A stretch of DNA of 62,278 nucleotides, filler included, from Globobulimina sp. (lineage: Eukaryota): NCBI GenBank assembly GCA_003354225.1. It is 33 parts of 33 records of this genome, joined end to end, with 100 filler letters (N's around TTAATTAATTAA, not from the genome) between each part and the next. Parts side by side here need not be neighbours in the genome. Positions count along the whole stretch, not along the records: positions 49,156 to 50,944 come from PIVH01011925.1; 32 more parts are not named here. One strand, given 5' to 3'. Positions 9,991 through 51,046 of this stretch are shown piece by piece. The notes under the pieces were generated by a model. The model made no database searches. It was not told the DNA's origin and saw nothing but the letters and a program-made list of their open reading frames with translations. The stretch's first letter is position 1; each line of letters begins with the position of its first letter. Position numbers and translations under genes: made by a program.

Positions 9991-10051
9991 AAGTCAGAAA
10001 AACTTCTAATTTAACGCTATAAAAGCAAGACAAAAAAACTTTAGTTAAAGT

Positions 10052-11209
10052 ATGAGTATCGAAATTAAGTATGCAGGAGAAACGGAAAATAAACAAAGTG
10101 AAAAAGACACAACAAAGAAATGTGAGAAAGATGTGACTGTATTAGGAATGCGTGTACGTATTGATCAGTTAATAAATATTGATACATCAAATCAAAGATA
10201 TAATTTAGCCGCAGTGTTTGACAAAACATGGCCAGCCACAGAGAAAGAAGTACGAGAATGTGAAGAAAATGCGAGAACATATGAACCAGAACAGGTTCCA
10301 CGAATTGATTTTAAAAACTGCATTGATATGAACAATTTTAGATATCAGACATGGTCAACAAGTAATATTTTTAAAATAAAAAAATCTCCAAAAGATGGCA
10401 AACTTTATAATTGTCAACGTATGAAATTTCATGGTAATTTCACGGAGGAATTTGAAGTTGCAAATTTCCCCTTTGATGTTCAAGATTTATCGCTGGTATT
10501 TGCTCCACCAACCATACCAGCAAAGTATTTTAAATTTATTCCAGATATGCTTCGAAACGAAAGTATGTCCATAGATAAGACTTGGTGCGCTGTCACGGAT
10601 TGGAATATCATTTGTGTGGATGTGAGGACTACAGAGATTGACAGAGTTGCGGCGAGAACTGAAGGCAAAAGAAAAGGTGGCGTCAATGACATATATCCAC
10701 GGATTATATTTAAAATACAAGTGCAGCGAAAATGGAGAGGTGTATTTCACAGTATTGTTGTTTGGATGTTTCTGTTGGGCTTGTTGTCGTTTTGTATATT
10801 TGGTTATGAATCGTCAGATATTGAAGGAAGATTAGGATTTGCCATAACTATGGTTTTAACCATTGTGGCCTTTCAATTTGTGATATCTTCAGAATTACCA
10901 AAGGTTTCCTATTTGACTATAATTGATAAATATAATTATTTTGTTTTTGGTAACGTTGTGATGTTGGCAATGGAATCTTTAGTGGTTGGCTATCATTCGG
11001 AAGGTATATTTGGAGAGCTATCCGAGAATATTGATTTTAAACTTAGTGTTGTTATGTGTGGTTTATATATATTGGGCCATATAGTATTTGCAGTGTATTG
11101 CCGATTGAAATATTTGGAGGAAGGACGTAAATTACATAAATGGAATAAGTTAAAAAAAAGTATTTTAGTAAAAATGTCGGATAGTAAATATGAATTTTCA
11201 CGTTTATAA
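10052..11209 (+). CDS. Cys-less (Pro-loop) pentameric ligand-gated ion channel subunit
   Basis: Pro-loop ANFPFDVQDL, pre-M1 Arg (VQRKW), M2 RLGFAITMVLTIVAF, LPKVSYLTIIDKY and four TM helices. Confidence 0.9.
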   Translation: MSIEIKYAGETENKQSEKDTTKKCEKDVTVLGMRVRIDQLINIDTSNQRYNLAAVFDKTWPATEKEVRECEENARTYEPEQVPRIDFKNCIDMNNFRYQTWSTSNIFKIKKSPKDGKLYNCQRMKFHGNFTEEFEVANFPFDVQDLSLVFAPPTIPAKYFKFIPDMLRNESMSIDKTWCAVTDWNIICVDVRTTEIDRVAARTEGKRKGGVNDIYPRIIFKIQVQRKWRGVFHSIVVWMFLLGLLSFCIFGYESSDIEGRLGFAITMVLTIVAFQFVISSELPKVSYLTIIDKYNYFVFGNVVMLAMESLVVGYHSEGIFGELSENIDFKLSVVMCGLYILGHIVFAVYCRLKYLEEGRKLHKWNKLKKSILVKMSDSKYEFSRL

Positions 11210-21398: not shown

Positions 21399-22548
21399 AT
21401 GGCACATCTGGTAGTTAGAGAAGGCTGGCTTCAACGCCAAAGTACGCACACTCAGAAATACCGCTAACGTTTAGATTTACTTGTTGTGGATTTTATTGTG
21501 CACTTTAAAAGGTGATTGGTTACGCAAATGGCAGCCAACATGGGCTGTTTTAGACAAGCAAACTTTGCGGTTGTTTCAAAAAGAGAAGGAATATGTAAAT
21601 GCAACCCATACAATTGACTTAACCATATTTAACAACGTTAAATCATCGGAAGATTATACACATAAAGCGTACTCATTTGATGTTTATAGCTCAAAATCAC
21701 GACATTCCTTTGTGGCAAAATCTGAGCAGAATAAAGAAGACTGGATCAGAGATATTGGTACAGCCATTATACAATTACATCAACAAAACAAAAGACAGCA
21801 TAGCGATGATATTCAATATAAACAACAGCCTCACAATTTAGTTGAAACATTGCTTGCAGAGAATCATAAATTGCAACAACAATTTAATGAATATAAACAG
21901 CAACGTGTTTTTAACCAGAAATTGGATGACAAAGATGCTCAAATTAAACTGTTACAAGCTGCGATTTCCGACAAAGATAAACAAATTGGCTTTTTACAAT
22001 CTAAATTGCAACAAACAGAAGTTTTACTGGAACATCATTTTGATGAAAAGGAAAATAATGAGCTCGAAGATGTGGATCATTGTAAAATTAAATTTGAAGG
22101 TTGGTTATCTAATATTGTGCGTTTACCACAATATTTAACAGTGTTTCAGGAAAAGGAATATAATGATCTACGATTGATTGAATTTTTTGACAAAGATACG
22201 ATTGCGAATGAGATTGGTATTGAGAAAAAATTACATTGCAAATTGTTATTGAAAATGGCAAAGGAGTTTAGATTGTCACAAATGGCTTTTGATCAAAAAC
22301 TGTATGGGAAATATCATGAATTGCGAGAATATAAACAAGTGTTTGCAGGGAATGGTATTTTGACAGCACAGCATTTTAAAAATGAAATCAATGACAAACA
22401 AGATTTTATAAATAAATTCGATATTACTGACGAAACTGCAATAAATTTAATGTGGCGTATCATGTATCCTCATAAACAGAATGCAAATGTGCAAGAAAAT
22501 AACGAAGGTGACGGAATTAATGATAATGCAACTTCGTACCTACAATGA
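21399..22548 (+). CDS. PH domain - coiled coil - SAM domain protein; intron 21442-21511
   Basis: Spliced start MAHLVVREGWLQRQSDWLRKWQPTWAVL (PH), EDWIRDI, and WLSNIVRLPQYLTVF (SAM). The intron has a GCTAAC branch-like site. Confidence 0.85.
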
Positions 22549-34092: not shown

Positions 34093-35699
34093 TCATGTAT
34101 TTTTTTGTTGAATATAGTCCAACAATTTCAGTTTATGCCCTAGTTTGTCAATACCAATGCTATCTAATTCATTCATCCTTAAATATTTGATGGAATCCAA
34201 ATCATCAAATCCATTTTTGACAAAAACAAAATAATATTGTTCCAAACCAACAATATCTTTAAGCCACAAATACAATTCGCTTTCTTTTATTTCTTTTAGT
34301 TTTAAATTGCTTTCTCGGTCAACAATACCATGACAATGACCATGGCAGTCACAGCAGCAACAATTTGTATTTATCTTCAATTCATTTACAATGGATAGCA
34401 ATTGCGTTATTTGTGAGTTAATGCATTGTAATTCCTTCCTATATGAATTATGTTTTTGTTTTTTCGAATCAGAAATTTCCTGAAAATATTTATTTTGTTT
34501 CAAATACCAATTCCAATCCGATTGTGTATCACATAACAAATCGCCTTTTAAATCATATTTATTTTTAATCAAAATATCTGCTTCGAAAGTCACACTGTCA
34601 TATTTTTTGAACAGCTGAAAAGATAAAACATCATGGCTCCATTTCGCAGATTGGTCATTGTCATAATCGAACTCCTTCACGCGGCGGTCTTTACTCTTTG
34701 TCTCTACGCAGGATAAACTATATTCGATCTCCAATTTGGATATATTCGACGGCAAAGAGCATAGTTGAATGTATAATTCAACATCACCTTAGCATGCAAT
34801 GTGCATTTGGATTGATCGTAAATTGAATGCATTTGCTATATATGCAATCGCAATGCATTCAATTTGCGATCATATAAAGTCAACCTTTTGACGCTGCATT
34901 GTCACCATTCGGAAAACATTGAATGCAAAACAAGCCTTCTTTTTCTATATTGCTTTCATAACATTTGCCAGTATTGCTTTGCTTCATTTTTTCCATCAGA
35001 GCTTTATTTATTTTCCATTCGATATTATGCACCTTTCTGTCTTCATTTTTGCTGCAGATTTGATAGAAAATGCGATTTTCTACCAATTGGATTCTGTTTT
35101 ATAGACACATAGTTTGTGCTTTATATAGTTAAATTTGTCATAATTATGTACCTTAAAATGGTGATTCGAATTATAAATGTCAACTGCGTGAAATTTGACA
35201 CTTCTTTCAGTGACAATGCGCCGTCACACCAACCAAAACTCGAATCCTTTTCATACGTAGCTATGCACGTATATTTTGAGCAGGATTCAATGCATTCGAT
35301 AGTTCTACGAACGATGATGTGATCCCATTTAGGTGGCAACGATAATAATTTAACAAATATATCAAATAAACCAATGCTGTCTTCATCAATTCCATTCGGA
35401 TAAGCTTGGATTATCCATTTTAGTCTGCCAATCTCAAATGGATCAGATCCAAATTGTTGTTTGTTTGATGCTGATGTCATGTCTTTAAATCGTTTATGGT
35501 CTGAGATGGTCCATTTGTATGTGCCAATATGAAGCATAAAATGATCCGATACATATGATAAACACAGAGCTGATATCTCATGTGGAATATTAAAATATGC
35601 ACAATTTTTGTTATCATTCAATAATAATGATTCTATCTGGCGAATGAATCCAAACACGATGTATTTTGTGCATTCATCCATTTCCGATCGTTGTGCCAT
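34093..35699 (-). CDS. Tandem MATH-domain plus C-terminal SAM-domain protein; introns 35094-35151 and 34788-34884
   Basis: YKWTI...SDPFEIGRLKWIIQAYPNG and IEWKI...FCIQCFPNG (two MATH domains); WLKDIVGLEQYY...GIDKLGHKLKLL (SAM). Both introns are GT-AG and restore the frame. Confidence 0.88.
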
Positions 35700-48689: not shown

Positions 48690-49155
48690 CTACGTTTCCC
48701 AAGAATACTAAAATAGAAGAATATGTAACCAAGCTGAAAACCTGGTTCAGTTTGAGTACCCTATGTAGGGATGACCACACTGACTCTTTCGTCATTTTGC
48801 TTGCTTCTTGAGTTGTTGTATTGTGTTTGTATTCTATCAATCCGATAGATTCTAAAAGGAAAGACTTCAATTCTTCGATTTGACAAAGTTAGAAATTGTC
48901 AAATTTTCACTTTTTGAAAAGTTGATCACAAGTTTCTATTTTGTTTGTTATGTGAATTAAAGAATGTATTTTGTTGTTTTGGGTGATATAGATAGCTGTA
49001 CAAACAATATCAAACAGTTTCATTAACAGAAGATTTTGAAAAGTTAAGGACGACANNNNNNNNNNNNNNNNNNNNNNNNNNNNNNNNNNNNNNNNNNNNT
49101 TAATTAATTAANNNNNNNNNNNNNNNNNNNNNNNNNNNNNNNNNNNNNNNNNNNN

Positions 49156-50944
49156 CCAATTGGTGTGTAGATATTTTGATATTAAGGTCAATGGTATACA
49201 GTTATTGAGTGATGTTGATATGATATCAAATAAAAATAATGTGGTTCATTTTTATAAACGGTTTATTAATGAATTAAACAATGAAAACATAATGAATATT
49301 GATTATATTTATAAAAATAAATTGGTATATAAATGGAATAGTGAATGCGTAGAGCGTTGGTGTGATGAGAATGGTTTAGTTGGCATCAAAAATATTATTG
49401 CAAAATGGTGTAATAATGGCAGTAAATTGATGGCAGCAAATACAGATTGTTTATCCTCGAAAATGTCGCTGAATGAATTTAGAATGATGAGAGATGAGGG
49501 ATTTTTTGAGAAATTGGCCATTTTAAAATTGGATTCGAAGCAAATATTGAGATTGATTTTGAATAATTACGTCGATGATTATATTTTATTTTTGCCACCG
49601 ATTTTATGCATTGCAGAGGAGATATTTGCTAATTTTTGTAAATATTTACACATTCTGGGTCTGGATGAATTACCTAAAAAAAGGAAGGGACCATTAACGA
49701 TGCTTGAAATTATTGGTTTGATTATAGATTCGTATAATATGACCATTGCAATATCAGATGTTAAGAAAAATAAAATTAAACAATTACTGTATGGCGCATT
49801 ATTACATGAGGCGATATTGTTGGATGAGTACGAATCGCTGATCGGTAAATTGCAGGACGTTGCTAATTTGAAATGGCCGGGAAAGGCGTTTTTGAGGCGT
49901 CTACGAAAGCGATTGTATGAATGCATAGCTTTGCATGGCAGAAAAAATGTAGTCATACAGTTATTGCCATGGGAATTGAAGGACCTTTGGTGGTGGAGTC
50001 AGTATTTGGATGCTGTTGCTGTTGCGTCGATAATTGATTTGGCAGACACTGAAATGCCAACAGATGTCATGCACTTTGATGGGGCAACGAATGGTTCGCG
50101 TTTAACGGGATGGTGTCCGGGAATTGACGTATTTTATCAGGGACATTGGATCTCAGTGCCAGTGCCTGAAAAATATACAAATGTATTCGTATCACATAGA
50201 GAGGAGTATGAGATAGATTTTGCAATTGCTCATTTTGAAATGGTTGCAAAATGACGTTTAAGCATTTGTTTCGTCCAAAAACGAAATTACTGTTAAAGAC
50301 TGATAATAAGCACGTTGAGTCTGTATTGTTGCAGAAAAACTCGACGGATGAATTCCTACAGTCTTGCTTACGTTGGATTTGTATGTGGTGCATCATCAAT
50401 AATATGCAGGTATACGTTAATTATGTGAATACAAAATTGAATAAATTGCCAGATTTGGCATCGAGATTTGATATGAGTGAATTCAGCAAATTGGCATTGA
50501 AAATATGCAATAAAAATGAGTGGGAATTAAAACCATTCTCTGCGCCATTCACTTTCCCAGATATACATCAATGGTAATCATATTTGAAATGCGTACAAAT
50601 GATATGTATCTATTTATGATATTGACTTGAATATATTTCATGTGCTTATAAGTCGACTACATAGATTTAGATATCGCCATAAGAACCAACCGGAAGGTGC
50701 CATCCTTCAACCTTACTTAAGGGGGCCTAAACTTACATGTTTTTTATTTTGTTTTAAAAAACACAAAGTAAGACTGCAAAAGTTCAAAAGTCCCGTATTT
50801 GATTTGGTACCAGCAATATATCGGGAGATATTATTAATAACTTTGAATGGTGGAATAAAAGCATCATCGGAGGGTACAAAGACAATTTTTTGGAATTTTG
50901 GAGGACAATGCGCAGATTGAATATACCGGATAAATGGGTTTGGA
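49156..50944 (+). mobile_element. Degenerate DIRS-type (tyrosine recombinase) retrotransposon: RT-RNase H (49160-50577, frameshift near 50252) and possible start of the recombinase ORF (about 50750 onward)
   Basis: YVDD, IIGLIIDS, LIGKL...PGKAFLRRL, DLWWW, FDGA, IAHFEM, TDN and YVNTKLNKLPDLASR follow the DIRS RT/RNase H motif order. Confidence 0.85.
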
Positions 50945-51046
50945 NNNNNNNNNNNNNNNNNNNNNNNNNNNNNNNNNNNNNNNNNNNNTTAATTAATTAA
51001 NNNNNNNNNNNNNNNNNNNNNNNNNNNNNNNNNNNNNNNNNNNNTA

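Follow-up and report, generated by a model that had tools for sequence, protein, structure and literature searches.

The window analysed here, a stretch of 62,278 nucleotides from Globobulimina sp. (GCA_003354225.1), carries at positions 49156-50944 a fragment of a probable tyrosine-recombinase retrotransposon, both ends of which are contig ends. Taken together, the evidence makes it highly likely that this is a decayed fragment of a DIRS-order element, and that its reverse transcriptase (RT) belongs to a deep clade in which a SAM domain was inserted once; protein-protein association is the most probable role of the insert. The insert, of approximately 115-130 residues, is made up of two helices, a linker, and the SAM domain, and is located between the motif B helix and the YxDD hairpin of the RT. 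Based on the predicted structure and on sequence profiles, the domain that follows the two extra helices and the linker is a true, divergent SAM domain.

The contig contains an open frame of 365 amino acids (49157-50251), which ends in a TGA stop at 50252-50254. In the original prediction, a SAM-like stretch at 49328-49579 was reported directly before the YVDD motif of the RT. This is confirmed, the stretch being residues 58-141 of the frame and closing with YVDD at 49568-49579. The spacing given for its first motif, W-x3-V, is not supported; the actual pattern is W-x4-V-x2-W-x4-GL, followed by N-G-x2-L. It was correctly reported that the 136 residues upstream of YVDD contain no motif B. This is because the contig begins at 49156, after a linker, and therefore inside the RT gene, 14 residues past motif B. 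The frame opens with QLVCRYF, residues that correspond in alignments to the last part of the motif B helix in relatives (WGTRSGSKHTQDVGQLVCRAF in P0004, a full-length member of 728 amino acids with 45% identity to the query).

An AlphaFold2 model of query residues 1-140, made with 19 aligned family rows, has a mean predicted local distance difference test score (pLDDT) of 88.4, with 91-98 over residues 51-120, and helices at residues 2-12, 14-26, 29-41, 48-53, 62-71, 75-84, 88-93, 96-102, 105-113, and 116-127. A SAM fold, on which the original prediction depended, is thus predicted with high confidence, and SAM domains are matched both in fold searches and in a profile search. In a Foldseek comparison with the Protein Data Bank (PDB), ranks 1-48, the rows shown, are all SAM-bearing chains, the best being 3bs7_A (target-normalised TM-score 0.74, root-mean-square deviation (rmsd) 2.9 over 76 columns, probability 0.96). 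VIA-align, which is independent of Foldseek, was used to compare the model with 48,161 representative chains and gave Z >= 8 for eight of them, over model range 49-132. By title, 46 of the 50 entries shown are SAM, PNT, or TEL-SAM; the other four are three mitoribosomal chains and one ZAK-bound disome. Among the matches are 3bs7_B (Z 8.8, 73 out of 75 residues aligned, rmsd 2.7) and 5j8y_D (Z 8.7, 70 out of 70 residues aligned, rmsd 2.4).

An insert-only profile (A5, 19 rows) was also searched against 177,635 PDB sequences. At E <= 0.001 it matched 18 distinct PDB sequences, all 18 of which are SAM-bearing. These include liprin-beta-1 (3tad_C; E 1.3e-9, the sum over three SAM domains), the SAM domain of SARM1 (E 1e-7 in a single stretch, profile positions 7-80 with chain residues 19-91), TIR-1 (4.7e-6), the Shank2 SAM (5.2e-4), and the SMS1 SAM (8.2e-4). 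Single insert sequences (n=19) matched Pfam SAM models below the curated cut-offs: SAM_1 in three cases (best E 5.8e-4), SAM_PNT in two, and SAM_3 and SAM_2 in one each. A PDB sequence search with the single 365-amino-acid window protein gave no match.

The SAM domains of SARM1/TIR-1 share the helix-bundle fold of the insert (SARM1: Z 9.2, 77 aligned, rmsd 3.3), as does that of liprin-beta (3tad_B, from the complex of liprin-alpha with liprin-beta; Z 8.9, 82 aligned, rmsd 3.3), and the W..eV..WL and FF.eL.eLK signatures are common to both. Unlike in these proteins, the domain is here embedded in the catalytic domain of an enzyme, rather than being a separate module. Classical SAM domains have five helices, whereas the model of the element's SAM has one more short helix.

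Relatives were collected by searching 1.84 billion representative proteins exhaustively with HMMER, which gave 635 matches at E <= 0.001, 150 of them listed. Among the matches listed, 17 out of 150 align from query residue 57 or earlier and cover the reported SAM-like stretch; P0011, a fragment, aligns from residue 110, inside the stretch; and the others align only from approximately residue 115-137, that is, from YVDD. Word-index searches contributed P0001-P0003 and P0153-P0159. In an alignment of 23 rows (A1), Y138, D140, and D141 of the YVDD motif are invariant, and a long insert is present between the motif B helix and YxDD in 19 of the rows. The four insert-free rows (P0018, P0026, P0032, and P0036, with 26-36% identity to the query) have approximately 20 residues from ...GSKHTQEFGELMIACFI to YIDD, compared with approximately 130 between the motif B helix and YVDD in the window copy. 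The two-helix part at 49157-49279 is likewise not present in these four in the alignment.

The unusually long gap before YVDD is real and not a chance effect, as shown by the bimodal spacing from motif A to YxDD in the 79 stored relatives where both motifs were detected: 52-76 residues in 56 of them, 176-226 in 23, and none between. In 21 of the 23 insert proteins the distance is 176-189 residues, and it is 185 in two open reading frames (ORFs) from metagenome contigs (L002 and L003). In all, an insert at the same site is found in 23 database proteins from several sources and in two metagenome loci. A comparison with sister copies had been proposed as a check, and these have intact ORFs in which motifs A and B precede an insert at the same site.

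The protein that hosts the insert was modelled using P0004 and 51 aligned rows (mean pLDDT 92.4, predicted TM-score 0.89). In this model, the motif B helix (243-265) is followed by the extra helices (267-278 and 282-290), a low-confidence linker (approximately 291-304), the SAM helices (305-378), and the YIDD hairpin (385-397). The model is structurally closest to the cauliflower mosaic virus (8r0s; E 2e-12) and Ty3 (4ol8; E 7.7e-12) RTs, in which RT is likewise followed by ribonuclease H (RNase H), and it also matches the foamy virus, MMLV, XMRV, and HIV RTs. Judged from the insert-free relatives, the distance from the motif B helix to YxDD in the Ty3 and caulimovirus RTs is approximately 20 residues, whereas it is approximately 130-140 in the SAM clade. 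Motif B itself here reads WGTRSGSK, compared with PFGLRSAP in more distant relatives.

In the 51-row alignment (A4), the columns of P0004 D391, D392, D559, and E612 are invariant and those of D206, D638, and D688 nearly so; these positions comprise the motif A and motif C aspartates and the RNase H acidic residues. As the insert has been retained in the clade along with all of the RT and RNase H catalytic residues, it would appear to belong to a working enzyme. Pfam models matched in relatives (n=19) are RT_RNaseH in 10, RVT_3 in six, and RVT_1 in four. In a protein-atlas search, the leads were all under 0.9 and pointed to eukaryotic RVT_1 clusters.

For the history of the insert, a maximum-likelihood tree was made in IQ-TREE from 54 rows with the insert columns removed: 24 insert-bearing rows (window included), eight close insert-free rows, and 22 distant rows. 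The fragments P0011, P0015, P0017, P0022, and P0031 were excluded. The 24 insert rows form one clade (SH-like approximate likelihood ratio test 100), for which one state change is needed, and together with the eight close insert-free rows they form a clade with support of 100 against the distant DIRS-like rows. End branches within the insert clade are long (0.12-1.33 changes per column). With the tree rooted on the distant rows, this points to one gain, old because the clade is deep, and kept since. The claim that a retroelement lineage carries a SAM module inside its RT palm is therefore supported, and extends to a whole clade.

A recent capture of the module from the SAM genes of the host is not supported. 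Two host ORFs in the window (36 ORFs scanned) encode SAM domains, one with PH and SAM_2 (21475-22545, + strand; E 2.7e-7) and one with SAM_1 (34096-34788, - strand; E 4.1e-12). The insert profile does not recognise either (E 2.7 and 5), so that no kinship is seen beyond the fold family, and across all 639 window ORFs the element itself is the sole scorer. Among the longer proteins of a word index of 5.8 billion proteins, the profile found five family members and no cellular donor, which is a weak negative as the index needs shared 5-residue words. With the host SAM ORFs unrecognised and the index yielding family members only, there is no sign of recent host capture.

The features of the contig are as follows.

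49156..50944, + strand: contig of 1789 bases, with N runs/linkers at 49056-49155 and 50945-51044.
49157..49279, + strand: end of the RT motif B helix (QLVCRYF...) and the two additional helices, residues 1-41, first part of the insert (alignment with P0001 and P0004; model helices 2-12, 14-26, and 29-41).
49301..49552, + strand: predicted SAM domain in the RT palm, residues 49-132 (AlphaFold2 model, VIA-align, and profile against PDB).
49568..49579, + strand: RT motif C, YVDD, residues 138-141 (direct sequence reading).
49580..50062, + strand: remaining RT palm, then thumb/connection (36-45% identity to P0001 and P0004).
50063..50577, + strand: RNase H (FDGATNG, HFEM, TDNK, PDLASRF), with a frame break near 50243-50254 (frames 49157-50251 and 50239-50577).
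50753..50943, + strand: start of the next ORF, the putative tyrosine recombinase N-terminus, in two frames and cut by the contig end (tblastn, ORF3 N-termini of L001-L003).

The window copy is dead, with two frame breaks. The downstream frameshift in the original prediction is real: after the TGA at 50252-50254, RNase H goes on in the frame of 50239-50577, and tblastn of P0001-P0003 switches frame within the RNase H of the window. The RT/RNase H ORF terminates in ...FPDIHQW, with its stop at 50575-50577. A second frame change is located near 50857-50878, in the start of the recombinase ORF.

Contigs from four public runs, of one sample in one study, were compared with the window; they are probably from the window's own sample and therefore give no independent support. 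Run contigs without differences cover 49318-50874, among them a contig of 223 bases (49534-49756) that bridges the junction between the SAM domain and YVDD. One run contig (50101-50370) spans the first frame break, and the end of another diverges just upstream of 50254 and continues in the RNase H frame as in the relatives. There is also a diverged copy of equal length from 49599 to 50075 and a variant copy in which 70 bases of the RNase H part, 50446 to 50517, are skipped. The host therefore has several diverged copies, and the breaks belong to the window copy. No second copy of the element was found by tblastn in the other 32 pieces of the window.

Three metagenome contigs of approximately 4 kb that encode relatives (L001-L003), probably incomplete, were used to assess the type of element. 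The RT/RNase H ORF, insert included, is present in each of the three. In L003 the first ORF (2-763) is gag-like with a CCHC knuckle (zf-CCHC, E 0.0025, 18.3 bits, cut-off 20.8). In L001 and L002 the ORF after RT/RNase H is of 470-480 amino acids and carries HGLRKGFA...GRW...Y, matching Phage_integrase at E 1.3e-5 (25.5 bits) and 0.0045 (17.2 bits), respectively (cut-off 27.1 bits); L003 has its start. Window positions 50753-50943 match the N-termini of this ORF3 in L001-L003 (tblastn, E 5e-5 and 2e-5 in a one-contig search space). The order in relatives is therefore putative gag (CCHC), RT/RNase H, and putative tyrosine recombinase. The RT/RNase H ORF stops right after RNase H and the recombinase ORF is next, with no methyltransferase in L001-L003. 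This layout is presumably Ngaro-like rather than DIRS1-like.

The RT/RNase H is of the long terminal repeat (LTR)-retroelement type expected for the DIRS order, based on YVDD, the Pfam matches in relatives, and the P0004 model. The passages on the order in PMC6681497 give gag-like, RT/RNase H, and tyrosine-recombinase ORFs as its gene set, and as its termini either inverted repeats with an internal complementary region or split direct repeats. From the sequence, this looks to be an element of the DIRS order with a Ngaro-like layout, and the earlier label of DIRS is right in the sense of the order, because relatives carry the CCHC gag-like ORF and the putative tyrosine-recombinase ORF. As in other DIRS-order and Ngaro-like elements, a gag-like ORF, an RT/RNase H ORF, and a putative tyrosine-recombinase ORF occur in a repeated, decaying family, and, unlike in them, an insert of approximately 115-130 residues bearing a SAM domain is located between RT motifs B and C.

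Tandem repeats were seen in two of the metagenome contigs. In L003 a 61-base unit is present three times in tandem between the gag-like ORF and the RT ORF (906-1088), and at the 5′ end of L002 (1-268) there are two repeat families, one of 85 bases (spacing 138) and one of 42 bases (spacing 129). These could be promoter or primer-related. In P0023 (EukProt) and P0151, RT/RNase H and tyrosine recombinase read as a single protein, which may represent fused ORFs or read-through gene models; the RT part of P0023 is without the insert and its chain ends ...LPHGLRKGFA.

A number of observations weigh against reading the contig as a DIRS-order fragment with a once-gained SAM insert that acts in association. 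There was no Foldseek match to the PDB at E <= 0.001, all being 0.7 or worse, and VIA-align carries its own warning that Z 8-9 is common for helical models. For these reasons the SAM assignment rests on the uniform match lists and the profile E-values. The Pfam scan of the window protein gave no SAM or RT model, nor any family at all. The gag and recombinase matches are below the Pfam curated cut-offs and were seen in relatives, the window itself carrying only approximately 60 residues from the N-terminus of the recombinase and, as its contig begins within the RT, nothing of gag. A search of L001-L003 (approximately 4 kb, probably incomplete) gave short tandem repeats only and no terminal repeats. 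The tree is from a quick search, and its 22 distant rows were hand-picked from the remaining matches. Lastly, conservation in the insert falls almost entirely on hydrophobic core positions, and no conserved surface suggests a partner.

In the mechanism proposed, an RT clade would have gained the insert of approximately 115-130 residues once, in the loop that joins the motif B helix to the YxDD hairpin, and would have retained it alongside the RT and RNase H catalytic residues as part of a working enzyme. The SAM insert would function in protein-protein association, as in most SAM domains, candidate partners being other RT molecules (self-association), another SAM-bearing protein, or a protein encoded by the element. 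Association is ranked first because the conserved columns are those of the core, there is no conserved basic charge, and the closest SAM domains are of types that associate with other SAM domains. The conserved insert columns are mainly core (W16, W24, G44, L79, K80, and the FF.KL..LK signature), and the 19 inserts have net charges between -9 and +7 (median 0) and a median isoelectric point of 7.1. On this analysis, association is most likely, ahead of generic nucleic-acid binding. A predicted SAM dimer, made from two copies with the family alignment unused, scored 0.00, which is evidence neither way.

A more specific proposal, that the SAM domain makes the RT self-assembling, as dimers or rings like those of SARM1, or docks it into SAM assemblies of the host, is tentative and rather doubtful. 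If it were true, a mobile element would have an oligomerisation or host-mimicry module in the core of its polymerase, kept during a long diversification in a variety of eukaryotes.

RNA binding and a passive structural role are ranked behind protein-protein association. It is unlikely that the insert binds RNA and so helps the RT to find or hold its template in an unusual replication. The insert is located in the palm of a nucleic-acid polymerase, and RNA-binding SAM domains exist, those of Smaug and Vts1 binding RNA hairpins, however the inserts lack conserved basic character, given the range of charge and the median isoelectric point above, and the best profile matches are to oligomerising SAM domains (SARM1 and liprin-beta), with no Smaug or Vts1 in 53 rows. 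Both of these points argue weakly against it. Just as improbable is a passive structural spacer, tolerated because insertions can be accommodated in this RT loop. In other RT classes, small insertions are found between motifs B and C, and the conserved columns of the insert are mostly core (W, W, V, L, G, L, FF, L, LK) with a variable surface, which would suit a spacer. However, a full-length domain has been kept across a long-branched clade (0.2-1.3 changes per column), its length is tightly held (176-189 from motif A to YxDD in 21 out of 23), and a useless insert of 120 residues is one that a mobile element should shorten or lose.

Two other explanations for the contig were rejected in favour of a decayed mobile element with a SAM insert. 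That it represents a domesticated host gene derived from an RT is very improbable: the contig is too short to reveal element ends and nothing specific favours domestication, whereas the window copy has two frame breaks, there are diverged and deleted copies in the same sample, and the RT of relatives lies between gag-like and putative recombinase ORFs. Least credible of all is an assembly chimera at the SAM-YVDD junction, or a chance helical match, for although the assembly is very fragmented (contigs of approximately 1.79 kb) and the window sequence itself matches no Pfam SAM model, this is refuted by the conserved site (23 database proteins and two metagenome loci), the bridging contig at 49534-49756, albeit probably from the same sample, and the profile E-values to SAM domains of 1e-7 and 1.3e-9. 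With the junction conserved in 25 independent sequences and bridged by a contig, the concern raised with the original prediction that it might be chimeric is removed.

The retrotransposon order is a known one; what is apparently new is a foreign interaction domain built into the palm of the polymerase. No description of a SAM domain in the RT of tyrosine-recombinase elements was found in the full-text literature, a search with most subscription journals and the Repbase reports outside its scope and in which the few papers returned were unrelated, judging by their listings, and the SAM insert in the RT palm of this clade is apparently undescribed before. Accessory elements between conserved RT motifs are present in telomerase (the insertion in fingers domain, IFD) and in group II intron and non-LTR RTs (the '4a' insertion), at another site or of much smaller size than the SAM insert. 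To our knowledge, neither is a SAM domain.

LTR-type and tyrosine-recombinase RTs are compact, and the palm is one of their most constrained parts. A complete foreign domain placed between motifs B and C, inherited throughout a deep clade in which the catalytic residues have stayed intact, indicates that a palm loop can host a whole domain. The insert is a clear marker for an undescribed tyrosine-recombinase lineage in marine metagenomes and eukaryote data sets, and it offers a testable handle on how such elements organise reverse transcription, whether by multimerisation of the RT or by recruitment of a partner. As a natural insertion-tolerant site in an RT, it is also of possible interest for RT engineering.

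The window (1-62278) as a whole is made up of 33 separate contigs of approximately 1.79 kb each, ordered by length, with N44-TTAATTAATTAA-N44 linkers between, and adjacent pieces are therefore not genomic neighbours. Its GC content is 34.5%, the host being an AT-rich eukaryote. Among the host ORFs, that at 10049-11206 (+ strand) matched both halves of a Cys-loop (neurotransmitter-gated) ion channel weakly, below the Pfam cut-offs. Other long intron-free host ORFs in the window matched EDR2_C, kinase, cyclophilin, Kelch, and MFS.

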